Below are positions 5,522 to 35,925 of a stretch of DNA of 64,000 nucleotides, in pieces (the first letter of the stretch is position 1; the number at the start of each line of letters is the position of its first letter). A program made the translations under genes and the position numbers. The stretch comes from Candidatus Spongiisociaceae bacterium (GTDB taxonomy: Bacteria > Actinomycetota > Acidimicrobiia > Spongiisociales > Spongiisociaceae). The DNA lies in contig OZ241841.1 in the NCBI GenBank assembly GCA_965202665.1, positions 1,996,189 to 2,060,188 of the forward strand, written 5' to 3'. The notes beneath the pieces were generated by a model that did not search any database, was not told where the DNA came from, and worked only from the letters and a program-made list of their open reading frames with translations.

Positions 5522-7056
5522 TCAGGTTTTAAAGTAAACCGCCGTCCGCCGGGACCCTTCCATCCGCAGTCGGCCTTGGTCCCGTAACCGCCGTAGCAGG
5601 TGGGTGGCTCTGGTGGGGTCAATCAGGCACAATTCGGCTACTTCGCTCCGAGTTATGGAGCCGTTGGCCTCCACATAGTTCATCACCAGCCGTTCCCGTC
5701 TGGCCCACCTGCTGGCCCGCTGGTTTAAGCCAGTCCCAGATTCAACTGGATGGATTTGGGGCAACGGCGCTGTTGGGCCTTGGAACTGGTATTCATTTCT
5801 GGCCTCGTAAAATTCCATCAGATCCGACAGGGGAAACCGTTGGCCGTTGCGGCTCCCCTCCCTAAGTTGCCGGACCATTTGCTTGTCGGCCAATCCGGGG
5901 GCGACGCGGGCTACAACCTGGCGTGGGTCGCTACCGCCGTAATCGGGCGGCGGGCGCCCCAGCAACAGCTGTCCCTCAAAAATACGAGCGATGCCCCGTC
6001 CGGTGCGTTCCACCAGGCCGGCCCCTTTGAAAGCATCGACCAGCCGGGGATTGCGCGCCCGGGGAGGAGCGATTATTAGATTGGCGAGGGTTATCCCCTC
6101 CGGAAAGCCGCCGGGGTTGGAGACCGTTAGCGCGCCGTCGCTGATCTGCACCAGCGTCATTCCCTGATCCGCGTAGTCGCGATGGATGAGGGCGTTGGCG
6201 ATCAGTTCGCGGATGGTTACTTCGGCGAAATGAGGCAAACCGATGCGCTGGGAATCGAGATCCATTTCTTCTTCGGAGTTGCGGGCCCGCACCCGGTCGG
6301 ATATTTCCGCCATTGCCTTGAGCAACGGGATGCGCCGTATCTCATTGACCCGTACCTGCAGATGATCCAGCTCTTGAAAGCCGACTTCGTAGGCGGGCAG
6401 ATGTTTGGCGATGGCCTTTTCTTTGCCGAATAACAACAAAGCCCCTACCGTGATGTTTTCCTCCGAGTCGGTGAGGTTCAGGGCTTGCAGAAGGTCATGG
6501 TCGGAGAGACTGGTTAGGGTTTTGTCGCCGTCTGATTCCGCCATCTCCCGGAAACGGGAAAATTCGGCATCGGAAAGATCGCTCTTGGTCGCCGCAGATA
6601 AAGTTACGCTGGAAAAATCCAGCACGCCGATGCTGCCCGCTCGCCCCACCACTTATGGGGCCGCATAGGAAGACACTCCGGTTGCCCGTGTATGTCCAGC
6701 GTTCGGCGTAGGAACTTGCCGGACTTGGTGGAAACAACATCCTGTCCAACCGGGACCTTAACGGCGATCACTTCCTTGCCGTTGATGGGTACCACCTGTA
6801 CGGCGGCATCTACCGCTGGTTCGGTGCGGCTGGCGATCAACGCTTGCAGTCGCTCTGGATCTGTGTGCCTGCCGTGACGAGGTTCAGCTCCGGTGATATT
6901 TCCTTGGTCGTCAACCCCGACCAGAAGCCAGCCTCCGCGTCCGTTGGCTAAACAGACCACCGATTCCACTAGATCCTTGTCGTTTGCGCGACTTTTGAAC
7001 TCGACGTTGAGCGTCTCGCCTTCGGAAACCAGGCCCTGGAGAGTTGTAGTGTCCAT
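5522..7056 (-). pseudogene. AlbA_2 (Schlafen-like) + HATPase_c_4 + wHTH putative ATP-dependent DNA-binding regulator, interrupted by a frameshift near 6605-6650
   Basis: ORF 6604..7056 carries the AlbA_2 domain (LNVEFKS...GGWLLVGVDD...KFLRRTLDIHGQPECLPMRP). ORF 5522..6652 continues in another frame with SIGVLDFSS, then the ELIANALIHRDY HATPase motif and a C-terminal wHTH. The two ORFs overlap by 49 nt. Confidence 0.65.
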
Positions 7057-7298
7057 ATGGCTATTATACCACTTTAGGCCAGGTTTTGCGTTTCGGGTTT
7101 GTAAGGGGTGTTGTTAAAGTTTGTATAGCTCTGGTTTTTTTGCGCATTTTTTGGGTTTGCGCTTATAATTTTTGTAAAATGAGGGAACTTTTTTGTTAAA
7201 GTTTGTAAAGGCCCCTGATTTTACGTCATTTTAGAGGCCAGTTTTGCGTAAAATTTTCTGGGGTGCCAAAAACAGGGGATTTTTTACGCGGATGGGTT
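7057..7298. other. AT-rich non-coding spacer with short direct repeats (GTTAAAGTTTGTA twice), atypical for this GC-rich genome
   Basis: Composition and repeats read directly. It lies between the stop of the gcvT-like gene and the start of the AlbA_2 gene. Confidence 0.5.
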
Positions 7299-8423
7299 TT
7301 AAAATTTTACGGGGGTGATGAAAGGGAGGGGGTGGGCGACGGCGGTGCGGGGGAGGCCGTCCGCCTCGGTTTGCAGTCGGGTTTCGGGTTGGGCGCAGGG
7401 GCTTTCCACGAACACGTAGCCCAGGTTGGTCTCGAAGCGGGGGGAGTAGCAGGCCGACGTCAACACCCCCACCGTCCGTCCTCCGGCGGTTACCGGGCGG
7501 TGTTCGGGGAAGGCCGTTATAGGCGGGCCGTCGATGTAGGCGCCGGTCAGCAGGCGATGGGGCGGGCGCTCCGCCAACTCCTCCAAGGCGGCCCGTCCCA
7601 CGAAGTCCGTCCCGGGCGGGAACTCAACCAGCCTCCCGAACCCCAACTCGTAAGGGTTCACCGAATCGTTCATGTCGGTTCCGTAGGAAAGAATGCCCCC
7701 CTCCATGCGGCGAATCTGGTTGGGGGAGCCGGGTTGCGCTCCATAGGGTTCCCCCGCCGCGAACACCCGGTCCCACAGCCGCCCTCCCTCCGCTGCATCG
7801 GTCAGGAAAACCTCGTAGCCGAACTCGCCCGACCAGCCGGTGCGCGACACCAAAAGTTCCATTCCGTCCAGACGGGTCCAGGCCGCCCGGTAGTAGCCCA
7901 GGTTGGCGATGTCCTCCCCGAACAGATCGGTCGCCAAAGCTTTTGATTTGGGTCCCTGGATCTGCAGGGGCGAAACGTCGGGCTCGCGCACTTCCACTGC
8001 AAATCCCCGTTCGGCGGCTATGGCCTGCGCCCACAGCAACACATCCCGGTCGGCCAGCGACAGCCAAAACCGGTCTTCGGCCACTCGCAACAACACCGGA
8101 TCGTTCACCACGCCCCCCCGGTGATTGCACAGAAACGTGTAGCGGGCCCGGGCCACCTCCATCCGGGAAACATCCCGGGTGCACAGGTACTGGGTGAGCG
8201 CCAAGGCGTCCCGCCCGCGGATTTCCACCTGCCGCTGGCATCCCACATCCCAGACGGCCACGTCCTCCACCAAGGCCCGGTATTCCTCCAGCGTCCCGGC
8301 GAATCGGCTGGGCAGAATCATATGGTTGTAGACCGTGGCCCCTTTGGCCCCGGCGGCCAAGGCCCGCTCCAAAAAAGGGGAGGGGCGGAGACGGGGGGTG
8401 CGTTCCAGGGCCAGGTCATCCAT
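7299..8423 (-). CDS. glycine-cleavage T-protein family aminomethyltransferase (GcvT/DmdA-like, folate-dependent)
   Basis: 374 aa with a GcvT-fold sequence. Start overlaps the MFS stop by 8 nt (operon). Confidence 0.7.
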   Translation of the reverse strand: MDDLALERTPRLRPSPFLERALAAGAKGATVYNHMILPSRFAGTLEEYRALVEDVAVWDVGCQRQVEIRGRDALALTQYLCTRDVSRMEVARARYTFLCNHRGGVVNDPVLLRVAEDRFWLSLADRDVLLWAQAIAAERGFAVEVREPDVSPLQIQGPKSKALATDLFGEDIANLGYYRAAWTRLDGMELLVSRTGWSGEFGYEVFLTDAAEGGRLWDRVFAAGEPYGAQPGSPNQIRRMEGGILSYGTDMNDSVNPYELGFGRLVEFPPGTDFVGRAALEELAERPPHRLLTGAYIDGPPITAFPEHRPVTAGGRTVGVLTSACYSPRFETNLGYVFVESPCAQPETRLQTEADGLPRTAVAHPLPFITPVKF

Positions 8424-9576
8424 CAGGTTTCAAATCTCCCGATTCGGAGTCGGCGGGGGCGGAGGATTTCCGGTGGCGGTAGGCCAGCCAGAAGGTAAAG
8501 GCCAAAGCCCCGGTCGCCAGCAGCGAAACCGCTGGCCGCAGGGTGTTGATGCGGTCGAACCACGCTCCTACCAGGGCCACCGTAACCCCGCCGATGGCCG
8601 CCGCGGCGGTCAGTCCCAAGGTTACGGCGCGCAACGCCAACGGCGGGGGCATTTCCCGGTCGGCGGCCAGGCCCATCAATCCCCACACCGGATAGTGGAA
8701 GGCCGCGTAGCAGAGGGCCGTCGCCGCCAAGGCCGCGTATGACCAGAAGTTGGCCGCGGCCAGCAACGCCGCCGTATAGATGGAGGCGGTTACCACTATG
8801 GCGCGCACCGGCCCGGCGCGGTCGGCCAAAGACCCGATGGGGGCGGCCGTCGCCAGAACCGTCAACCCGATCAGCCACCACAGGGCGGCGGCCGCCAACG
8901 GTCCCGCCCCCAACTCGTCGACGGCCGCCACCGTCAAATAGACCCCCATCGTGAAACCGGTTACCGCGGTGGACACCGAGGTGATGATCACCGTCCGTCC
9001 GGCGGTCATCCCCCACACCGCCCGCAACGAACCCGACCGCTCCGGCGGGGGCCCCACCGGGGGGAGGGGCCGCCTGATCATGATGGGGACCGCCGCCGTC
9101 GCTACCGCCGCGCACCCGGCGGCGAACAGGAAGGCCAGTCGCCAATTCTCCGTTCCGGTCAGGGACCAGATGAAGAAACCGTTCAGGGCGGTCCCGATGC
9201 CCGTGCCTGAAGAGGCCATGCTCATCACCAGCCCCCGCCGTTGCGCGTCCGTCACCCGCCCGGCGGACTGCAGGGTGGAGGCCCAGTTGAGGGGGGCCGA
9301 CATACCGAGGGTGACCACGCACAGGGCCAGCACCGGGGCGGAACGGACCGACGACACCAAGAGAAGCCCGGCCCCGGTCAGGGCGTAGGTTCCCATCAAC
9401 AGCCTCCGCAAACCGAAGCGGGCCGCCACCCGGGGGGTCAGGGCCGCCCCCAGGCTGTAGGCGAACATGGCGGCCGACACCGCCAAGCCCAGCGCCCCGT
9501 AGCCGGAGTCCATGGAACGCGAGATGCGGGGCAACATGGCGGGAATCAAACCCATCCCGAACCCGTGGGTGACCAT
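8416..9576 (-). CDS. MFS transporter
   Basis: 386 aa, polytopic and hydrophobic, with MFS-like helices. Sits between the FDH FeS gene and the gcvT-like gene. Confidence 0.65.
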   Translation of the reverse strand: MVTHGFGMGLIPAMLPRISRSMDSGYGALGLAVSAAMFAYSLGAALTPRVAARFGLRRLLMGTYALTGAGLLLVSSVRSAPVLALCVVTLGMSAPLNWASTLQSAGRVTDAQRRGLVMSMASSGTGIGTALNGFFIWSLTGTENWRLAFLFAAGCAAVATAAVPIMIRRPLPPVGPPPERSGSLRAVWGMTAGRTVIITSVSTAVTGFTMGVYLTVAAVDELGAGPLAAAALWWLIGLTVLATAAPIGSLADRAGPVRAIVVTASIYTAALLAAANFWSYAALAATALCYAAFHYPVWGLMGLAADREMPPPLALRAVTLGLTAAAAIGGVTVALVGAWFDRINTLRPAVSLLATGALAFTFWLAYRHRKSSAPADSESGDLKPDG

Positions 9577-9629: not shown

Positions 9630-10580
9630 TCAGGAGCGGGCCCTCCGCAGAACTTCGTCGATGGGGGTGGATGCCAAGTCGCCCACCTCCTGCACGTATT
9701 CATACCCGAACCGCCCTTTGATGCACAGGTGGCCGGAGGTTATCGCATGGTCCATGGGGGAAGTCACCTTGACGATCCGGTTGTCCTGCACATGCAGTTC
9801 CAGGTTGCAGCCCACCCCGCAGTAGGAGCAGACGGTCCGCGTCACGGTCTGACGTTCCTCCGCCCACATCTCCGCCTCCCGCAGTTCGTGTTCGCTGCGG
9901 AACATAAGAGCCCCGGTGGGGCAAACCCCGATGCAGTTACCGCAGAACACGCAGGCCGAGTCGGTCAGCCCGGTGTCGAATTCGGTGGAAATGCGGGCCT
10001 CGAATCCCCGCCCTGCCACCGCGATGGCGAATGTATTCTGGGCGTCTTCGCCGCAGGCCTCTACGCACTTGTAGCAGAGTATGCACCGGGAATAGTCCCT
10101 GATGTACAAGGCGTTGTCCACTTTTACCGGTTGCCGCACGGTTTCCGCCTCCTGTCCGTTGACGGGGGGATGATGGCCCGCCGTCCGCCGATCGCGGTCC
10201 TCGGCGGGGGGAGCGGGCGGCCCATAACGGCGCGGGTCGCATCCGTACTCTTCCATCCAGCGGCGGGTTTCCCCGTCTACCAGATCCAGGTCCGTGGAGG
10301 AGGCCAGAAATTCCAGCACCATACGCCGGGAAAGACGCACCCGTTCGCTGTCGGTGAAGACCGCCATCCCCTCCTCCGCCGGGCGGCTGCAGGAGGGGAT
10401 CAGGGTGCGGGAGCCCTCCACTTCCACCACGCACACCCGGCAGACGTTCACCGGGGTCAAGTTTTCCAGATAGCAGAGGGTGGGTTGACCGAGGCCCGCC
10501 GTCCGGCAGGCGTCCAGAATGGTGTCCCCGGCGGCGACGGTCACCTCCGTTCCGTCGATGGTGATGGTCGTTTCACCCAT
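9630..10580 (-). CDS. fdhA: formate dehydrogenase alpha subunit, N-terminal FeS module encoded as a separate gene (2Fe-2S + two 4Fe-4S + start of the Mo domain)
   Basis: NuoG/FdsA-like N-terminus: CRVCVVEVEG, CILCYKCVEAC, CVFCGNCIGVCP, CSYCGVGCNLELHV, GHLCIKGRFGYEY. Ends 20 aa later with a non-homologous tail. Start overlaps the NuoEF stop (ATGGGTGA). Confidence 0.8.
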   Translation of the reverse strand: MGETTITIDGTEVTVAAGDTILDACRTAGLGQPTLCYLENLTPVNVCRVCVVEVEGSRTLIPSCSRPAEEGMAVFTDSERVRLSRRMVLEFLASSTDLDLVDGETRRWMEEYGCDPRRYGPPAPPAEDRDRRTAGHHPPVNGQEAETVRQPVKVDNALYIRDYSRCILCYKCVEACGEDAQNTFAIAVAGRGFEARISTEFDTGLTDSACVFCGNCIGVCPTGALMFRSEHELREAEMWAEERQTVTRTVCSYCGVGCNLELHVQDNRIVKVTSPMDHAITSGHLCIKGRFGYEYVQEVGDLASTPIDEVLRRARS

Positions 10581-12375
10581 CGCCCGACTCCAACAGTCCC
10601 AGTTCCGCCGCCGACCGGATGGCGGAGGAGGCGGTGTGCCCCAGTCCGCAGATGGAAGCGTCCGCCATCACCTGCGCCACATCCGAGAACAGATCCCACT
10701 CCCACTCCCCTCCGGCCAGGCGCCGTTCCAGCAGTTCTTCCTGCCGCACCGTTCCCACCCGGCAGGGGACGCACTGCCCGCACGATTCGTCCCGGAAGAA
10801 ACGGGCGATGCGGCGCGCGGCGTCTCCAAAGTCGGTTCCGGGCCCGAACGCGCACACCACCCCCGACCCCAGGGTCGCCCCCCGGGCCCGGGCGTCCTCG
10901 AAGGTGAGGGGCATGTCAAACTGGTCGGGGTCGACGAACACCCCCGCCGCCCCGCCCAGCAGAACCGCCGCCGCCCCGCCCCCGACGGTTCCGCCCGCCT
11001 TTTCCAGCAACCCGCCCAAGGTTTCCCCGAACTCCACCTCGTACAGCCCCGGCCGCCCCACATCCCCCGCTAGGCAGAACAATTTGGTTCCGGTGGAATC
11101 GGGGGTTCCCACCGCCGCGAAGGCCGCCCCTCCCCGCAATACGATTTCCGGCACGTTGAGCAAGGTTTCCACGTTGTTAATGACCGTGGGCCGCCCGAAC
11201 AGCCCCGCTACGGTGGGGAAAGGGGGCTTGTTGCGGGGCTCGCCCCGCTTGCCCTCGATGGAATTCATCAGGGCCGTTTCCTCCCCGCAGATGTAGGCCC
11301 CGCCGCCCCGCCGGATCTCAATGTCAAACGCCCGTCCCGACCCGGCGACGTCGTTTCCCAGCAGGCCGGCCCGCCGCGCCCCGGCTACGGCCTTCTCCAT
11401 TCTTTCCGTCGCCAAAGGATACTCGGCCCTTATGTACAGGTATCCGATCTCCGCCCCCACGGCCAGCCCGGCGATGGTCATGGACTCCGTCAGGGCGAAC
11501 GGGTCGCCTTCCATCAAAACCCGGTCTTTGAAGGTGCCCGGCTCGGACTCGTCGGCGTTGCAGATCAGATAACGGGGGCGGTCGGGGGAGCGGGCCACCG
11601 CCTCCCATTTGATCCCGGCCGGGAAAGCCGCCCCGCCCCGCCCCCGCAACCGGGAGGCCTTGACTTCTTCGATAACCCGCTCCGGGCCGATTTCGATCGC
11701 CCGGCGCAGGGCCGCGTAGCCCCCCGTCCGCCGATAATCATCCAGCGAAAGGGGATCCGCCGTCCCTATTCGGCGCAGCAACCGCAACCCGGCCTCACCC
11801 TGTTGGGGAAGGGGCGGCGGGGCCGGGGGAGGGGGGGCTTCCGAGTCGAGGCAGGCCGCCACATAAGCGGCGTCGGCCCCGGTCGCGGCCAAGTCGCGCC
11901 TACCCGCCCGTTGGATGAAAGCGGCCGGGGCCCGGTCGCACTGGCCCAGGCAGGGGCTGGGATGGACATCGCCCCGCCCCCGCAGCGAAGCCAGAATCTC
12001 CGTACCGCCCCTCCGCCGGCACACTACGTCGTCGCAGATGTGGGCCACCCGGCGGGGACGTTCCGTCAACGACAGCAGAGCGTAGAAACTGGCCACTCCG
12101 TAGGCTTCCGCCGGGGGGACGATCAGCCGCTCGCATATGTAATTGAGGGCCCCCCGGCTGATCCAGCCCACTTGATCGGAAACGGCGTGCAAAGCGGGGA
12201 GCAACAGATGTCGTCGTTCGATCATGCGCCGGTATCCACCCGGGGCGGTGCGCATCATCGGCGAGGGGCCGGCCTCCCCGTTTTCGGCCGGGTTCGCCCC
12301 CTCCTCCGTTGCGGGCGCGCCCAAGAGCCGGTCGACCGCCTCCCGCTCCTCGGCGGTGGGGGCGGCGGACATCAA
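10573..12375 (-). CDS. NAD(H)-binding FeS flavoprotein, NuoE-NuoF fusion (FdsG/FdsB-like diaphorase subunit)
   Basis: N-terminal NuoE-like thioredoxin fold (LLPALHAVSDQVGW...HICDDVVCR). NuoF motifs GGAAFPAGIKW, ICNADESEPGTFKDR, CGQCVPCRVGT. Confidence 0.85.
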   Translation of the reverse strand: MMSAAPTAEEREAVDRLLGAPATEEGANPAENGEAGPSPMMRTAPGGYRRMIERRHLLLPALHAVSDQVGWISRGALNYICERLIVPPAEAYGVASFYALLSLTERPRRVAHICDDVVCRRRGGTEILASLRGRGDVHPSPCLGQCDRAPAAFIQRAGRRDLAATGADAAYVAACLDSEAPPPPAPPPLPQQGEAGLRLLRRIGTADPLSLDDYRRTGGYAALRRAIEIGPERVIEEVKASRLRGRGGAAFPAGIKWEAVARSPDRPRYLICNADESEPGTFKDRVLMEGDPFALTESMTIAGLAVGAEIGYLYIRAEYPLATERMEKAVAGARRAGLLGNDVAGSGRAFDIEIRRGGGAYICGEETALMNSIEGKRGEPRNKPPFPTVAGLFGRPTVINNVETLLNVPEIVLRGGAAFAAVGTPDSTGTKLFCLAGDVGRPGLYEVEFGETLGGLLEKAGGTVGGGAAAVLLGGAAGVFVDPDQFDMPLTFEDARARGATLGSGVVCAFGPGTDFGDAARRIARFFRDESCGQCVPCRVGTVRQEELLERRLAGGEWEWDLFSDVAQVMADASICGLGHTASSAIRSAAELGLLESGDG

Positions 12376-12383
12376 CCGCAGGT

Positions 12384-14284
12384 CTATGGGGAAACTCCGT
12401 GCGGGACCGCCCGCTCAATGCGCACCGCGGTGGCTTTGAACTCGGAGGTGCCCGATTTTGGGTCCCAGGCGTCGGTGGTGAGCAGGTTGACATCCGCTTC
12501 GTCCGGGTCGTGGCAGCTCATAAAAGCCAACCCGCCCGCAACGACCGATGGAAGAACACCGGAACGGCGATGGAACCCCGGCGGGAGATGACATTCACCA
12601 GCTCGCCTTCCCGCAGTCCCATATGCTCCCCGTCCTCGGGGGCGATTTCCACCGCCGCCGCACCCCGCAAGGGAGAGTCGTATCCCGCCGACTGCACCCC
12701 GGTGTTGTAGGAGTCCAAGCGGCGGCCGGTGGTGAGGCGGATCGGGTATTCCCCGGACAGGCCGTCGCGCGGGGGGGCCCAAGGGGCGGGTGTGAAAGAG
12801 GCGGGCGGGCGGGTCAGGGGGCGCTCCCACAGGTCGCCGTGCAGGAACTGCGTGCCGGGATGCTTCTCGTCCGGGCAGGGCCACTGAATGCCCCCGGACG
12901 ACTCCAACCGGGTATAGGACATTCCGCGGTGCATGGGGGACAGGCTGCGCACTTCTTCCCACACTTCCTCGGCGGAGGGGAAACCCCACCCGCGGCCCAT
13001 CCGTTCCGCCAACCCGGAGATGATGTCCAGGTCGTCCCGGGCCTGGCCGGGGGGGTGAAGGGCCCGGCGCACCCGTTGCACCCGTCGCTCCGAGTTGGTG
13101 ACGGTGCCTTCCGATTCGGCCCATCCGGCGGCGGCCGGCAACACCACATCGGCCATTTGGGCGGTGCGGGTCAGGAAAATGTCCTGCACCACCAGAAAAT
13201 CCAGGCCTTCCATAACTTCCCGGACATGGGCGGCCCGGGCTTCGGACTGGGCCGGGTTTTCCCCGATGATGTACAGGCCGGTCAGTTCCTTGCGTTCCAT
13301 CGCCTCCAGCATGAGGGTGAGGTGCCAGCCGATGCGGGGCGGGACGGGCGCTCCCCAGCGGGTTTGGAACGGGGCGCGGAGGTCCGGGTCCTCCACATCT
13401 TGGAAACCGGGCAGTTTGTTGGGTATGGCTCCCATATCGCCCCCGCCCTGCACGTTGTTCTGCCCCCGCAACGGAACCAGGCCCGAACCGTAACGGCCCA
13501 CATGCCCGGTGAGCAGGGCCAAGTTGATCAGGGACAGCACGTTGTCGGTGGCGTTGTGATGTTCGGTGATGCCCAATGTCCAGCAGATCTGGGCTGATTT
13601 GGCTGTTGCGTAATCGCGGGCCATCTGTTGGATGACGGCCGCCGGGACGCCGGTCACCTGCTCGCCGCGCCGCAAAGTCCACTCGTCCACCGCCGCCGCG
13701 TAGCCGTCGAATCCGGTGGTGGAGCGGGAAATGAAGTCCGAGTTATGCAGGCCGGCCGCGATTATCTCCCGTCCCACCGCGTTGGCTAAGGCGATGTCCG
13801 ACCCCACGTCGATTCCCAGCCAGGTATCCGCCCACTTGGTGGAGCTGGTGCGACGGGGATCCACCGCGTACATTTTCGCCCCCGCCCGCAAGCCCCGCAT
13901 CAGGTGGTGAAAAAAGATGGGGTGCGCCTCGCGGGCGTTGGAACCCCACAACAGAACCAGGTCGGTGGTTTCGATTTCTTGGTAGGAGGAAGTTCCGCCT
14001 CCCACTCCCAGCGCGGTCGCCAGACCGGCGACCGAAGGAGCGTGTCAGGTGCGGTTGCAGGAGTCGATGTTGTTGGACCCCATCACCGCCCGGGCGAACT
14101 TCTGCGCCAGGTAGTTGACCTCGTTGGTGGCCTTGGAGCAGGAAAACATCCCAAAGTCATTACCCCGGTGCCCGGACAGCCCGCGGGCCGCCTCATCCAG
14201 GGCTTGTTCCCATGAGGCCTCCGTCAACTCCCCGCCGCGTCGCACCAAAGGCGCGGTCAGCCGGACATTGTACGGTTTTGCCAT
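12384..14284 (-). CDS. fdhA: selenocysteine-containing formate dehydrogenase catalytic (Mo-bisPGD) subunit, with in-frame UGA at 14045-14047 and an apparent frameshift near 12540-12560
   Basis: ORF 14045..14284 ends ...NNIDSCNRT-TGA and continues in frame as HAPSVAGLATALG, the canonical C.R.U-H.PSVAGL selenocysteine site. ORF 12518..14005 covers the Mo domain. The canonical C-terminus (MSCHDPDEADVNLLTTDAWDPKSGTSEFKATAVRIE) is in the frame of ORF 12384..13682, which needs a 1-nt shift. RBS GGAGGTGAAAA lies before the 14284 start. Confidence 0.75.
14015..14033 (-). promoter_or_regulatory. SECIS element hairpin directing selenocysteine insertion at the UGA of fdhA
   Basis: On the mRNA strand: UGA + 11 nt + GGUCGCC-GGUCU-GGCGACC. 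The spacing and the GGUCU apical loop match the bacterial fdhF-type SECIS. Confidence 0.55.
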
Positions 14285-14345: not shown

Positions 14346-16112
14346 TCAGAACAGGCCGACGATGCGCCCCTCCTCGTCCAGATCCACATCCATGTAGGCG
14401 GGTTTGGTTCCCAGCCCCGGCATAGTGCGGATCTCGCCCAGCAAGGGCACCAGGAAACCGGCCCCCACCGCCGCCCGCACTTCCCGCACCGGTACGGTGA
14501 ACCCGGAGGGGCGCCCTTTCAGGGTGGGGTCGTGGGACAGGGAAAGGTGGGTTTTGGCCATGCAAACGGGCAGGTAGCCGAACCCGGTGCGTTCCAAGTC
14601 GGCGATCTGCCCGTTGGCGGCCGGGGAGTACTCCACCCCGGCCGCTCCGTATACGTCGCGGGCCACGGCCTCTATTTTTTCCTTGATGGACAACTCCAGA
14701 GGATACAGGAAACGGAAATCCCGTTCGCCCTGCGCCGCATCCGCCACCGCCTCCGCCAAGCGCAAAGCCCCCTTCCCCCCCTCGGCCCAGTGGTGGGCGG
14801 TGACGGCGGCCGTCGCCCCCGATTCGAGGGCCGCCCGTTCCACCGCCTCCAACTCGTGCTGCGTGTCGGTGGGGAAGGCGTTCACGGCCGCCACCACCGG
14901 CACTCCGAAGCGCCGGGCGGTCTCAATGTGCGCCGTCAGGTTGCCCAAGCCGGCCTGCAGCAACGGCAGGTTCTCCTGGGTGTAAGCCGAATCCAATCTC
15001 CGCCCCGCCACCACCCGCGGTCCCCCCCCGTGGGTTTTCAAGGCGCGGACGGTGGCCACCAAAACCACCGCATCCGGCGCCAGCCCCGAAGCCCGGCATT
15101 TGATGTTGAAGAACTTCTCCATTCCCATATCGGCCCCGAACCCGGATTCGGTTACCACGTATTCTCCCAGATGCAGGGCCAGCCGATCGGCCAGGATGGA
15201 GGAGTTGCCGTGGGCGATGTTGGCGAACGGCCCGGCGTGCACGAAGGCCGCTTGGCCCTCCAGGGTTTGCATGAGCGTGGGATGCAGGGTGTCTTTCATC
15301 AAAACCGCCACCGCCCCCGCCACTCCCACATCGTCCAAGGTGATCGGTTCGCCGGCCTTGTTGCGGCCGATTACCACCCGCCCGCAACGTTCCCGCAGGT
15401 TGCGCAGGGCGGAGGGGTAATCGTTGCCGTCTGCCAAGGCCAAGATGGCCATCAGTTCGGACGCCACCGTGATGTCGTATCCGGTTTCCCGGGGGCGCCC
15501 GTCCAGTCGCCCGCCCAACCCGACCACGACGTTGCGCAGCGAACGGTCGTTTATGTCAACCACCCGCCGCCATTCGGTGCGGAACACGTCGATGTCCAGC
15601 CTTTCCAAACCGACCGCCTCCAGTTGATCATCGGACATGCGCCGTTCGTGGTACCAGCGGGCGTCGATGGCGGCCGCGGCCAGGTTGTGGGCGGCGCTTA
15701 TGGCGTGGATGTCCCCGGTCAGGTGCAGGTTGAACTCGTCCATGGGGACCACTTGGCTGTAGCCGCCCCCGGCCGCCCCCCCTTTGATGCCGAAGGTGGG
15801 GCCCATGGAGGGCTGGCGGATGGCGGCGACGGCCCGTTTGCCCAACGCCCCCAGGCCCTGGGTGAGGCCGATGGTGGTGGTGGTTTTGCCTTCTCCCAGC
15901 GGGGTGGGGGTGATGGCGGTTACGTCGATGTATTTGCCCGTCGGACGGGAGCCAACTCGTTTCAGGATGTCCAAGTGCACTTTTGCTTTGGCGTGCCCGT
16001 AGGGGATCAGCTCGTCCGGTTCTATGCCCACCGAGTCGGCGACTTCGGTTATCGGACGCACCCGGGCCGCTTGGGCGATGGCCAGGTCGGAGGGTACTTT
16101 GGCGTAGGGCAT
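14346..16112 (-). CDS. fhs: formate--tetrahydrofolate ligase
   Basis: GEGKTTTTIGL P-loop and Fhs-wide similarity. Start set at the internal Met (MPYAKVPSDLAIAQA) of the over-long ORF 14346..16445. Confidence 0.9.
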   Translation of the reverse strand: MPYAKVPSDLAIAQAARVRPITEVADSVGIEPDELIPYGHAKAKVHLDILKRVGSRPTGKYIDVTAITPTPLGEGKTTTTIGLTQGLGALGKRAVAAIRQPSMGPTFGIKGGAAGGGYSQVVPMDEFNLHLTGDIHAISAAHNLAAAAIDARWYHERRMSDDQLEAVGLERLDIDVFRTEWRRVVDINDRSLRNVVVGLGGRLDGRPRETGYDITVASELMAILALADGNDYPSALRNLRERCGRVVIGRNKAGEPITLDDVGVAGAVAVLMKDTLHPTLMQTLEGQAAFVHAGPFANIAHGNSSILADRLALHLGEYVVTESGFGADMGMEKFFNIKCRASGLAPDAVVLVATVRALKTHGGGPRVVAGRRLDSAYTQENLPLLQAGLGNLTAHIETARRFGVPVVAAVNAFPTDTQHELEAVERAALESGATAAVTAHHWAEGGKGALRLAEAVADAAQGERDFRFLYPLELSIKEKIEAVARDVYGAAGVEYSPAANGQIADLERTGFGYLPVCMAKTHLSLSHDPTLKGRPSGFTVPVREVRAAVGAGFLVPLLGEIRTMPGLGTKPAYMDVDLDEEGRIVGLF

Positions 16113-30993: not shown

Positions 30994-31068
30994 CCCCTTC
31001 CCATCGACTGGAATGGGTCGGAACGGAAAGTCGAAATTTAGACGAAACACGGCGGCGAAAGGAGCAGT

Positions 31069-34000
31069 GTGCGCGAGCTGTTCGATGAACTGAAAATTGG
31101 TTTGGCGTCCTCCGATCAGGTGCGGTCCTGGTCGTTCGGGGAGGTGAAGAAGCCGGAGACCATCAACTACCGCAGCTTGAAGCCGGAGAAGGACGGGCTG
31201 TTCGACGAGCGCATTTTCGGTCCGCAGAAGGACTGGGAATGCTACTGCGGCAAATACAAGCGTTTTCGCTACCGGGGCATCGTGTGCGAAAAATGCGGCG
31301 TGGAGGTGACCCGCAAGGATGTGCGCCGGGATCGGATGGGCCACATCGACCTGGCCGCCCCGGTCACCCATATCTGGTTTTTCAAAGGAGTCCCCTCCCG
31401 GTTGGGGTATCTGCTGGACATGTCCCCCAAAAACCTGGAGATGATCATCTACTTTGCGGCCTACGTGATCACGGAAGTGGACGAAGGCAAACGGATGGTG
31501 GATCTGCCCGACCTGGAGGAGCAGATGCGGGCCGAGTTGGAAATTGTGGGGGAGGAGTTGGAGGAGTGGCGGTTGGAGCGGCTGTCCCGGTTGGAGAAGC
31601 AGGTGGAGCAGATGGAGGAGGCGGGGGCCAAGCTGGCGGAGGTGGCCACCGTGCGCCGCGAGGCGGAGCGGGAAATCAAGGATCGGGAGGAGAAAGCGGA
31701 GAAGGAACGCGAGTTGATCAAGGAGAGTTTTGCGGAATTTCGCGAGTTGCGTCCCAAAGATCTGGTGGAGCGGGAGGATTTGTGGAGGGAGATGCACGAA
31801 CGCTACTCGGCCTACTTCGATGGGGGAATGGGGGCGGAGGCGGTGAAGAAATTGCTGTCCAAGGTGGATTTGGACGCCGAGATGGAGGAGTTGCGGGAAG
31901 GTTTGCAATCATCGTCGGCGCAACGGAAACTGCGCTCCGGGCAACGTGTGAAGGTGGTGAAGCCCTTCTGGGAGGGCAAGCATTCGCCGGAGAGCATGAT
32001 TATAGAGGCGGTTCCGGTCATCCCGCCTGAGTTGCGACCCATGGTGCAGTTGGACGGGGGGCGCTTCGCCACCTCCGACCTGAATGACCTGTACCGGCGG
32101 GTGATTAACCGCAACAATCGCCTGAAGCGGCTGTTGGGGTTGAACGCCCCCGAGATCATCATCAACAACGAGAAGCGCATGTTGCAGGAGGCGGTGGACG
32201 CCCTGTTCGACAACGGGCGGCGGGGGCGGGCGGTGCCCGGTACCGGCAATCGTCCCTTGAAGTCTTTGACCGACATGTTGAAGGGCAAAGCGGGGCGGTT
32301 CCGGCAGAACCTGCTGGGGAAGCGAGTGGATTATTCCGGCCGGTCGGTGATCGTGGTGGGCCCGCAGTTGAAGTTGCATCAGTGCGGTTTGCCCAAGGTG
32401 ATGGCGTTGGAGTTGTTCAAGCCGTTCGTGATGAAGCGGCTGGTGGACCGGGATTTGGCGGCCGGCATCAAGGCGGCCAAGCGGATGGTGGAGCGGCAAC
32501 GTCCGCAGGTGTGGGACGTGTTGCGGGAGGTGATACAGGATCATCCGGTGTTGCTCAACCGGGCCCCCACTTTGCACCGGCTGGGGATTCAAGCTTTCGA
32601 ACCGTTGCTGGTGGAAGGCAAAGCCATACAGATTCATCCCCTGGTGTGCGAGGCTTTCAACGCCGACTTCGACGGGGATCAGATGGCGGTGCATCTCCCC
32701 TTGTCTCCGGAGGCGCAGGCCGAGGCGCGGGTGCTGATGCTGTCCACCAACAACGTACGTTCCCCGGCCAGCGGCCATCCCATCGTGTCCCCCTCCCAGG
32801 ACATGGTCATCGGCCTCTACTACCTGTCGGCGAATATCAAAAAAGAAGGCGCCTTGGGGACAGGCCGGTACTTTGCCGATCTGCCGGAGGCGTTGATGGC
32901 CTATGACTTGGGTGAGTTGGAAGTGCACGCCCCGATCAAAATTCGGATGGGCGATATGGCGGGCGACCCGCAGGTGCACGCCGAGCTGAAGGATCTGATC
33001 GGGTATCTGATCACCGACCAACCGGTGGATGGCCAGGTTCCGATGGACACCACTTTGGGCAAGGCCTTACTCAACCAAGCCCTGCCCGCCGATTTCCCGT
33101 TGATCGACGCTCCTTTGTTGAAGAGCGGCATCAAAGACCTGCTCGCTGAGATCATCGACCGCTACGACAAGGCGGTGGTGCAACGCACTCTGGACGGGCT
33201 CAAGGATTTGGGTTTCGCCTTTTCCACCCAGGCGGGGCTCACCGTGGGTTTGAACGATGTGACCACCCCGCTCGACAAGCCGAAGATACTTAACGAGGCG
33301 GAGGACAGGGCGCAGAAGAAGGAACGAGAGTACCAGCAGGGGAGCATTACCGCCCAGGAACGGGATCAGGAGTTAGTGGAGATTTGGAGCGAAGCCACCG
33401 AAGAGTTAACCCAGAAGGTGCGCACTTCCCTGTCCGATCAGGACTTCAACCCCATTGATATGATGATGAGCTCCGGCGCCCGGGGCAACATCATGCAGGT
33501 GCGCCAGATAGCCGGTATTCGCGGCTTGGTGGCTAACAACCGCGGACGCATCATCCCCCGGCCCATCAGGTCTAATTTCCGAGAGGGGATGACTGTGCTG
33601 GAGTATTTCATGTCCACGCACGGGGCCCGCAAAGGTCTGACCGACACCGCTCTGAAAACCGCCGACGCTGGTTATCTGACCCGCCGCCTGGTGGATGTGT
33701 CCCAAGAGATTATCGTCTCCGAAGAGGAATCGGAGGATCGGGGCATCGACATCCGCGTACGGGATGCAAAAGGCGATACCCTCCCCGACTTGCGCAACCG
33801 CATCTACGGGCGGGTGTTGGCCGAAGATGTGAAAGTGGATTACAAGTTGCGTATCACCCGCCCCGGTGATTCCAACTTCGAAGCTGGCCAAACCGTGGAG
33901 TTCACGAAGTTTGCGTCCGTCAAACGGGAGTTGTTGGAGGCTGGCAAAAAACCGGCCGAAGGTCGGCCGACGGGAGGTAAAACGGCCCTTACCAAGGATG

Positions 34001-35925
34001 GCGTGGCTCTGGAGGCGGGGGCGGTGATTGACCGCAAGGTGATGGTGGAACTGCAGGCTATGCCGGAAGTCGACTCGGTGCGGGTGCGTTCCCCGCTCAC
34101 CGACGAGATCCGGCACGGCATCAGCCGCGCTTCCTACGGGCTGAGCATGTCCACCAACCAACTGGCGGAACCGGGCGAGGCGGTGGGGGTGATGGCCGCC
34201 CAGTCCATCGGCGAGCCGGGCACGCAGCTGACCATGCGCACCTTTCATACCGGGGGGGTGGCCGATGAAACGGATATCACCCACGGCCTGCCCCGGGTGG
34301 TGGAGTTGTTCGAAGCCCGCTCCCCCAAGGGAAAGGCCATCTTGGCCGAGGCCAGCGGAAAAGTGCGCATTGACGATGGTGAAGAGGGGGTGCGCGCTTT
34401 GGTAATCGAATCCCCCCGGAGCGGGGAAGTCAAATACCGCTTGTCCCCCAACGCCCGGTTGCGGCCCGGGGTGCGAGAGGGGGGTGAAGTCGCCGCCGGA
34501 GATCAACTTACCGAAGGGCCGTTGGATCCCAAAGAGGTGTGCCTCATCAGAGGAGTGCGGGCCTGTCAGCAGTATCTGGTGGATCAGGTGCAGGATGTGT
34601 ACCGCAACCAGGGGGTGGAGATTCACGACAAGCACATCGAGCTGATCGTGCGGCAGATGTTGCGCAAAGTGCGCATCATCGAGCCCAACGACACCGATTT
34701 TCTGCCCATGCAGATGGTGGATCAGGGAGAGTTCCGGGACACCAACCGGGAGTTGGCGGCCGCGGGCAAGCAACCGGCCGAGGGCCGTCCGGAGCTGATG
34801 GGGATCACCAAGGCCTCGCTGGCTACCGAGTCCTGGTTGTCGGCCGCATCCTTCCAGGAAACCAGCCGCGTGCTCACCGAGGCGGCCATCAACGGACGCT
34901 CCGACTACCTGCGGGGACTGAAGGAGAACGTGATCATCGGCAAGCTGATTCCGGCCGGCACCGGTTCCGATGAATACCAGAAACTCCAACCCGAGCTGTC
35001 CCAGGCGCAGATAACACCCCCCTTGACCGGAGCCGACTGGTTGGCCGTGCGGGAGATGGAAGTATTCACCGAAGAGGTCGCCGGTGAGGCCGAGGATAAG
35101 GCCGCCCAAGCCGAGGAGGCCCGGGCCAGGGCGGAGGAGAAAAAGGCGGAGGTGAACGCCGCCACTGACGATGCCGAGAAATATACTTTGAGGAGGGAAA
35201 GAGACGAAGAATATGAACGGGCCGCCCGCTATGACCGGGAGGCGGCCGAGGAGGAGGAGCGGGCCGCGGCCCGCAAGTTGGCCCATGCCCAAGCGAAGGC
35301 GGAGGAGGCCGAGGAAGCCGAAGCGGCCGCCCAGGAGAAAGAGTTGGAACAGGCTCGCAAAGAGGCGGAAAAGGCCCGGCAAGCGGTGGAGAAGGCCCGG
35401 GAGAAGGAAGACAAGGCCGCCAAAACGCGCCGGGAGAGGGCCGCCAAAGAGGCGCAAAAATGGAAGGATCGGGCACAGCGGGCATTGCGAGAGGCCGAAG
35501 GGAAGCAGAAGCAGGTGGCTGATAAAACGGAGCAGGCTAAAGCCGCGCTGGATATAAGCGCAAAGGTGGATTTGGCGCGGCAGGTCGTGTCTGAATCCGA
35601 GAAGGTGATCCAAGGCGTACGGGAAGCGAGGAAAGCGGCAACGGTAGCCCAGGAGGCTGAAGTTAAGGCTGAGCTGGAAGATACAGAAGCGCCGCAGGTA
35701 ATAGAGGACGCCGAACAGGTGATCCTAGATGTGGAGCAAAAGGTTCAGGAGTTGCGGGCCTCGCTGGATGCTCCCCAACAGGATGCGGGAGCTATTGACA
35801 GATCCCTCGACGAGAACCGCGAGTCCTTGACGAGGATGGCCGTTACCTTGCAGAAGTTCACCGACTGGTTGAAAAAAATCGGCGAGCTCGTCGCCGATGC
35901 CCTAAAGAAACTGCTGGGAGGGTAA
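31069..35925 (+). CDS. rpoC: DNA-directed RNA polymerase subunit beta', carrying a ~330-aa K/E/A/R-rich coiled-coil C-terminal extension
   Basis: Canonical RpoC through ...[14 protein letters not shown] (about residue 1280), then a low-complexity charged tail to residue 1618. GTG start. Confidence 0.9.

Follow-up and report, generated by a model that had tools for sequence, protein, structure and literature searches.

A three-gene operon of Candidatus Spongiisociaceae bacterium very probably encodes a cytoplasmic, formate-oxidizing selenocysteine (Sec) formate dehydrogenase (FDH) of the FdsABG/Fdh1AB type, probably NAD+-linked and built from three polypeptides, whose alpha subunit appears to have been divided by an ancient gene fission. 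The operon lies in a stretch of 64,000 nucleotides (assembly GCA_965202665.1, contig OZ241841.1, positions 1,996,189 to 2,060,188 of the forward strand), hereafter called the window; positions of features count from its start. The first gene would provide the catalytic body with its Mo/W-bis(pyranopterin guanine dinucleotide) (bisPGD) cofactor and Sec as metal ligand. The second gene, a NuoE-NuoF fusion (NuoEF), would provide the flavin mononucleotide (FMN) and NAD(H) site, and the last a HoxU-like iron-sulfur (FeS) subunit that also bears the FS0 4Fe-4S domain.

The division of the alpha subunit is seen most directly with the TIGR01591 (Fdh-alpha) profile. Positions 1 to 53 of this profile align with the FeS protein and positions 53 to 672 with the catalytic product, which pins the fission point to a single profile position. 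For the domain searches the catalytic gene was translated with its in-frame TGA read as Cys and with one frame correction discussed below, which gives a product of 633 aa starting at the domain II boundary. The FS0 domain (Molybdop_Fe4S4) sits on the separate FeS protein instead of with the pterin-binding domains. The catalytic product scores 621.4 bits and the FeS protein 56.2 bits, and the cut-off of 666.25 bits is exceeded only by the simple sum of both polypeptides (677.6 bits). When FeS residues 1 to 297 and the catalytic product were joined, they gave one unbroken alignment (query 4 to 921) to the fused alpha subunit 9wxb_B with E=7.5e-181, and the same construct is collinear with Rhodobacter capsulatus FdsA (6tg9_A, residues 27 to 932) and with Methylobacterium extorquens Fdh1A (7e5z_A). 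The catalytic product covers FdsA residues ~305 to 932, and it also matches E. coli FdhH (1aa6_A) strongly. The sole difference at the junction is an insertion of four residues, GRFGYEYVQ followed by MAKPYNVRLTAPL being aligned with GRFAYGYAT, a gap of four and HRDRILKPM. An earlier note on this DNA, made from the letters alone, had described an FDH alpha subunit that is split, with its gene order reversed, and an FeS module that stops where the catalytic gene begins; the profile and the alignments agree with this description.

To judge the age of the split we compared related genomes. More than 549 matches came from a scan in which each species was represented by one genome, and all counts of relatives given here refer to the best 80 of them. 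These share 65 to 87% protein identity with the window proteins and are nearly all labelled as metagenome-assembled genomes (MAGs) of marine or sponge Acidimicrobiia, many of them sponge-associated; the closest is a Candidatus Spongiisociaceae genome. A conspecific set was reached through a 99%-identical FeS protein, its contigs being ~99% identical to the window in nucleotides. In total 105 loci were fetched, and L-numbers label individual ones. All 80 relatives have the split, with FS0 on the FeS protein, none carries a fused FeS-catalytic gene, and the start position of the catalytic gene is identical throughout. The three genes are adjacent on one strand in the order catalytic, NuoEF, FeS at 60 loci, and five further loci keep this order around an insertion (65 of the 68 complete loci together). 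NuoEF and FeS are divergent from the catalytic gene at three loci, and 12 are truncated at a contig end.

The FeS protein extends beyond FS0 by a tail of about 20 aa, which the earlier note had read as the remnant of a rearrangement breakpoint. No counterpart of the tail exists in the fused enzymes aligned, as that note had stated, but among 64 relatives with inspected FeS C-termini about half carry its motif, LGDLxxTPIDxVLxRAR. Because the motif is conserved, the tail is a selected extension rather than breakpoint debris. Fused homologs show up only at ~40% identity in a search of 50%-identity representatives, which returned mostly fragments; they are proteins of ~900 aa or pieces of ~370 aa, the latter length fitting truncation at the Sec codon. 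Given that the split is universal among the relatives, that its gene order holds over such a range of identities and that the tail is conserved, the arrangement is an old, selected architecture that appears to have arisen by gene fission. The exact junction and the extra tail would also be expected if a normal fused fdsA had recently been rearranged or mis-assembled. This is vanishingly improbable, since seven conspecific assemblies share the split with the 80 species-level genomes, the gene order recurs almost without exception, all three genes possess starts of their own, the FeS start overlaps the NuoEF stop by 8 nt and the tail motif is kept. Thus, the permuted order is no peculiarity of one assembly, and the breakpoint proposed earlier is not borne out.

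Some loci deserve separate mention. In L015, L028, L030 and L032, between 2.4 and 5.2 kb are inserted between the catalytic gene and NuoEF, and the fifth interrupted operon, L080, has a gap of ~0.3 kb ahead of the FeS gene. Two contigs labelled Candidatus Marinacidobacterales (Vicinamibacteria, Acidobacteriota), L048 (1.4 Mb) and L077 (1.95 Mb), carry the split operon in the same order at 65 to 67% identity. Both MAGs look to stem from the same kind of sponge project, which suggests either that symbionts living together transferred the operon laterally or that the bins carry wrong labels. L077 also contains, at ~9009 to 9040, a relic SCNRT-TGA-HAPSEAGG that precedes its actual fdhA by some 1.2 kb; the relic has no surrounding open reading frame (ORF) and resembles a fragmentary duplicate of the Sec region.

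The catalytic gene starts with an ATG at 14284 behind a strong ribosome-binding site, AAGGAGGTG. Its translation opens with MAKPYNVRLTAPLVRR, reaches SCNRT, meets a TGA at 14045-14047 and resumes in frame with HAPSVAGLATALG. In an alignment with 9wxb_B, an FdsA of the Cys type, this codon falls on the active-site Cys, and TGA occupies the aligned position in 80 of 80 relatives. The ~550 codons beyond it are conserved as protein. Gene callers always break the catalytic gene into ORFs of 79 and 540 aa in the conspecific contigs that cover the UGA. The Sec/Cys-His dyad is present, CNRT-U-HAPS being aligned to the C-H of FdsA, and so is the active-site Arg (LRGQNNVQG; VPLRGQNNVQGGGDMG aligned to PLRGQNNVQGSCDMG). 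All FDHs share this His and this Arg (PMC7171172).

Eleven nucleotides past the UGA starts a hairpin that is contained in the minimum free energy fold. Among 76 distinct sequences, its six core stem pairs are paired in 96 to 100% of cases, and one pair varies (CG 65, UG 8, UA 3). Covariation statistics are weak when taken alone, as most pairs are invariant, and a test of synonymous sites was more informative. In the five codons of the hairpin (GTC GCC GGT CTG GCG) the third-position entropy is 0.00, whereas flanking four-fold degenerate codons reach 1.2 to 1.9 bits. Since third positions do not vary within the hairpin and vary freely around it, a constraint at the RNA level is located exactly on the hairpin. 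The minimal fdhF selenocysteine insertion sequence (SECIS) of E. coli has the same spacing of 11 nt and a GGUC(U) apical loop, as in the present hairpin. Hence both the Sec codon and the fdhF-like SECIS of the earlier note find support in conservation, and the UGA would be decoded as Sec through this element. Because no sel genes were seen in the window or the fetched loci, Sec decoding is argued from conservation; Sec machinery has been reported in another order of the Acidimicrobiia (bioRxiv 10.64898/2026.04.03.716425).

The NuoEF protein (~600 aa; 599 aa as called in conspecifics) likely starts at the ATG at 12372. It is predicted to bind a [2Fe-2S] cluster, FMN, NAD(H) and a [4Fe-4S] cluster, and it matched TIGR01959 with 425 bits in an NCBIfam profile search. 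Among solved structures it comes closest to the NuoF-like beta subunits found in FDHs and hydrogenases that are NAD-linked, including 6vw7_B, 9wxb_C, 6tg9_B and the fused 7e5z_B. The FeS subunit comprises a [2Fe-2S] module like that of HoxU and the NuoG N-terminus, two ferredoxin-type [4Fe-4S] clusters, FS0 at residues 245 to 297 and the C-terminal tail. Sixteen ligand Cys residues are invariant in all 65 FeS sequences compared. Absent from the window protein and from all 65 is the His-x3-Cys-x2-Cys-x5-Cys motif of cluster A4 in the R. capsulatus enzyme (RcFDH), which corresponds to cluster N5 of complex I. Across the split clade, the corresponding region (FeS residues ~90 to 150) is replaced by a variable linker rich in Pro, Arg and His. 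As A4 lies off the pathway from bisPGD to FMN in RcFDH, at the dimer interface (PMC7171172), its loss should not break the electron wire. The loss may remove electron exchange between protomers, and given the loss of a cluster from the dimer interface the enzyme may work as a single protomer. In trans, FS0 would take the place on the catalytic body that domain I occupies in FdsA, and electrons would pass from bisPGD through FS0, the two [4Fe-4S] clusters, the [2Fe-2S] cluster, the NuoF [4Fe-4S] cluster and FMN to NAD+. On balance we lean towards regarding these loci as an undescribed functional subclass of soluble NAD-linked FDH with FS0 brought in trans by a HoxU-like subunit, Sec in the active site, a fused NuoEF and no A4, widespread in marine and sponge Acidimicrobiia and shared by the two Vicinamibacteria MAGs.

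Several observations weigh against the assignment as a Sec-containing, NAD+-linked FDH. The catalytic product by itself scores 621 bits and does not reach the 666 bits that TIGR01591 requires. The earlier proposal to fold and score the SECIS had a divided outcome: the hairpin is part of the predicted fold, but Rfam at gathering thresholds gave no match anywhere in the window, and under relaxed settings the SECIS_3 model matched over its full length and with exact placement (13992 to 14050, minus strand) with 22.6 bits, far under the gathering score of 63. No selA, selB, selC or selD was found within the 64-kb window or the 105 fetched loci, and ARAGORN likewise found no tRNA-Sec in either. Formate:NAD+ activity is assigned by homology, and the NAD+ specificity is open to the objection that NuoF-like subunits also occur in bifurcating and NADP-linked enzymes. 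Finally, the window copy is broken as written, the last ~48 residues of the cap domain being missing.

This last defect is the late change of frame that the earlier note had detected and placed at 12540 to 12560. The body frame stops at 12518 (SLRAGWLL-TGA), and the canonical C-terminus, LAFMSCHDPDEADVNLLTTDAWDPKSGTSEFKATAVRIE, continues in another frame that ends at 12384. DNA alignments with relatives and conspecific contigs located the actual site in a G run at 12531-12533, which has three Gs in the window and four in each of the seven conspecific assemblies that span it (six metagenome scaffolds and one 2.76-Mb contig). All seven encode an intact 540-aa product after the UGA. Compared with the relative L001, the window is short of one base within Gly-Leu codons (CGGGCGGG-TTGG versus CGGGCGGGATTGG). 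The 48 C-terminal codons are in frame in 80 of 80 relatives, and the Molydop_binding profile reaches them only after frame correction. One G is missing from a run of four, a deletion private to one assembly and not part of the design of the gene. Exact-sequence database look-ups retrieved no record for the window FeS protein or for the truncated 495-aa catalytic ORF; the collection searched thus seems to lack the source assembly, and no other assembly in it shares the frameshifted product.

Indel error, recent pseudogene and recoding had all been suggested for this frame change. Programmed -1 ribosomal frameshifting or transcriptional slippage could in principle yield a full-length enzyme, since a -1 slip of tRNA-Gly at G-GGU-UGG would restore ...RAG-LAFMSCH.... 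We reject recoding as very improbable, because the shift is found in none of the 80 relatives and none of the seven conspecifics and the site, CGGGCGGGUUGG, is not a slippery heptamer of the X-XXY-YYZ type. A run of three Gs is also far too short for polymerase slippage.

Between the other two explanations the odds are roughly even. A sequencing or consensus error in the window assembly, leaving the fdhA of the organism intact, has an even chance of being correct. It would fit the homopolymer context, with G4 read as G3, the occurrence in one of eight assemblies of the species and the undamaged state of the 48 codons downstream. Frameshift artefacts are, moreover, common in other MAGs of the clade, such as in FTHFS of L025 and in NuoEF and FeS of L035. 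However, over ~57 kb aligned to conspecifics there is no other discrepancy in homopolymer length save in one intergenic C run that is variable among other strains too, and the indel pattern elsewhere looks natural: the other indels keep the frame, fall between genes or are compensated, which points to an accurate assembly.

The same pattern argues for a real, very recent and strain-private mutation, a reading to which we give almost as much credence and in which the window would hold a null or crippled fdhA allele in an operon that is starting to decay. Only one further deletion shifts a frame (~6655). It lies outside any homopolymer, which also speaks against consensus error, and it hits an SLFN_AlbA_2/HATPase_c_4 gene whose calls are also shorter in two other conspecific contigs (304 and 324 versus 511 aa), while 36 kb of rpoBC and ribosomal-protein genes are free of frameshifts. 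Yet this contrast between accessory and essential genes involves two events and is not significant (P about 0.1). Furthermore, the frame-corrected gene has no other disabling change, its TGA, SECIS, C-terminus and partner genes being undamaged, all 87 other copies are in frame, and among residual consensus errors none is commoner than a G run that is one base too long or too short. Being private to the window assembly, the frameshift is relevant as a caution only.

The operon and its surroundings are listed in Table 1. The formate-tetrahydrofolate ligase gene (FTHFS) precedes the catalytic gene by 61 nt on the same strand. It falls inside the fetched flanks of 37 of the 80 related loci and lies immediately upstream in 22 of those. 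The major facilitator superfamily (MFS) transporter and GcvT-like genes recur in L001 and in the conspecific contigs, and probably represent a context of one-carbon metabolism. Divergently upstream is an ATP-binding cassette (ABC) transporter, probably of the glycine-betaine type. With the ligase adjacent, the GcvT-like gene downstream and the probable betaine-type transporter upstream, the most likely role of the enzyme would be to oxidize formate released by the ligase during tetrahydrofolate-dependent oxidation of methyl groups.

Table 1. The probable formate dehydrogenase operon, its candidate Sec and frameshift sites and its neighbors in the window
Feature	Position	Strand	Evidence or remark
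Formate-tetrahydrofolate ligase (FTHFS)	14346-16112	minus	Pfam FTHFS E=1e-247; 588 aa in conspecific contigs
Catalytic Mo/W-bisPGD FDH subunit, domains II-IV, no FS0 domain	12384-14284	minus	Pfam Molybdopterin 6e-66 and Molydop_binding 3e-21
Candidate Sec codon UGA, motif CNRT-U-HAPS	14045-14047	minus	
Candidate SECIS hairpin GGUCGCC-GGUCU-GGCGACC	14015-14033, conserved core 14016-14032	minus	
Frameshift site, GGG run	12531-12533	minus	premature TGA at 12518-12520
Out-of-frame C-terminal 48 codons of cap domain (LAFMSCHDPDEADVNLLTTDAWDPKSGTSEFKATAVRIERAVPHGVSP)	12384-12530	minus	translation
NuoE-NuoF fusion flavoprotein	10573-12375	minus	2Fe-2S_thioredx, Complex1_51K and NADH_4Fe-4S
FeS subunit, 316 aa	9630-10580	minus	Pfam Fer2_4, Fer4_7 and Molybdop_Fe4S4
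MFS transporter	8416-9576	minus, downstream	Pfam MFS_1
GcvT-like aminomethyltransferase	7299-8423	minus, downstream	Pfam GCV_T and GCV_T_C

Comparison of the strains revealed further peculiarities of the window. Between the GcvT-like and AlbA_2 genes lies an AT-rich intergenic stretch of ~240 nt (7057-7298) in a genome of 64% GC; it holds many A-runs and CAAAA-like repeats and is by far the most indel-rich region among the ~99% identical strains. The adjacent gene on the minus strand (5522-7056) contains the second private 1-nt deletion (~6655, CATGAAG to CAT-AAG), which divides the SLFN_AlbA_2 and HATPase_c_4 gene into ORFs of 150 and 376 aa. This gene is whole in the conspecific contigs L081 and L082 (511 aa) and in L001 (554 aa), and it measures 304 aa in L097 and 324 aa in L099, two further conspecific contigs; it may be decaying or variable in the population. 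In other genomes of the clade, FTHFS of L025 (8102-9867) and NuoEF and FeS of L035 (7258-9860, several frame changes) are broken, probably by long-read consensus errors.

RpoC (31042-35925) is unusually long, with 1618 aa in conspecific calls, and the tail of rpoC differs from that of other strains by a compensated +1/-1 indel pair at 35812-35815. Long acidic C-terminal tails of low complexity are found in the ribosomal proteins L4 (41395-42486, 277 aa), L29 (45518-46126, 145 aa) and L10 (26077-26859, 232 aa). A heuristic based on ORFs and third-position GC content (GC3) had flagged the ribosomal-protein pairs L10/L12 and L4/L23 as possible frame switches; this was rejected, as on translation the genes proved intact and their tails acidic.

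Soluble NAD-linked metal FDHs are studied as catalysts of CO2 reduction. The present clade would offer a natural Sec variant with FS0 on a separate subunit and one cluster fewer, and thereby a test of the modularity of the interface between FS0 and the pterin-binding body. It also illustrates how annotation can mislead. The catalytic gene is cut at the UGA, and public annotations name the FeS subunit 'NADP-reducing hydrogenase subunit HndD', 'YjgC' or '2Fe-2S protein', so that formate oxidation may go unnoticed, or hydrogen metabolism be wrongly inferred, in abundant marine and sponge bacteria.

Among known systems, FdsABG(D) of R. capsulatus and Cupriavidus necator (6TGA/6TG9, 6VW7; also 9WXB) has the same modules, i.e. 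a NuoG-like FeS N-terminus, FS0, the bisPGD body and a NuoF-/NuoE-like diaphorase. The joined FeS and catalytic proteins align with FdsA from end to end, and the active-site His and Arg are kept. In contrast to FdsABG, the alpha subunit is divided between FS0 and domain II into two polypeptides, whose genes flank the diaphorase gene in reversed order. The metal ligand is predicted to be Sec here and is Cys there, NuoE and NuoF are fused, and the A4 ligands of RcFDH (His117, Cys121, Cys124 and Cys130) are missing from all 65 sequences. No fdsD-like gene was noticed at the locus, where no systematic search for one was made. The soluble tungsten enzyme FDH1 of M. extorquens (Fdh1AB; 7E5Z, 7VW6) is similar in its beta subunit, of which 7e5z_B (572 aa) matches the NuoF part of the fusion. 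We take this Methylobacterium subunit to be a NuoE-NuoF fusion like the present NuoEF. Its Fdh1A, unlike the split and putatively Sec-containing enzyme described here, is one fused chain with a Cys active site. To our knowledge, the alpha subunits of all characterized soluble NAD-linked metal FDHs (Rhodobacter, Cupriavidus, Methylobacterium) are single-chain and of the Cys type.

E. coli FdhH (fdhF) shares the Sec-His active site and the succession of UGA and hairpin. Unlike the present enzyme, it retains its own FS0, has no NuoG-like module or NuoEF partner and is part of formate hydrogenlyase. Precedents for an FeS wire or a molybdoenzyme fold distributed over separate polypeptides are HylABC-FdhF2 of Gottschalkia acidurici, the hydrogen-dependent CO2 reductase (HDCR) and the formylmethanofuran dehydrogenase FwdB/FwdD. 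These systems either leave FS0 on the catalytic subunit or are cut at the C-terminal cap domain, whereas here FS0 goes with the HoxU-like subunit. We found no published account of the split layout in the literature on FDHs of Acidimicrobiia and sponges, on actinobacterial FdsA/B/G or on Spongiisociaceae, and this subunit layout of a known enzyme class is apparently undescribed. In summary, the enzyme resembles FdsABG and Fdh1AB and has their adjacent NuoF-like and NuoE-like diaphorase, but departs from the present definition of the family in two features: its FS0 is not part of the catalytic polypeptide, and it has no A4 cluster.

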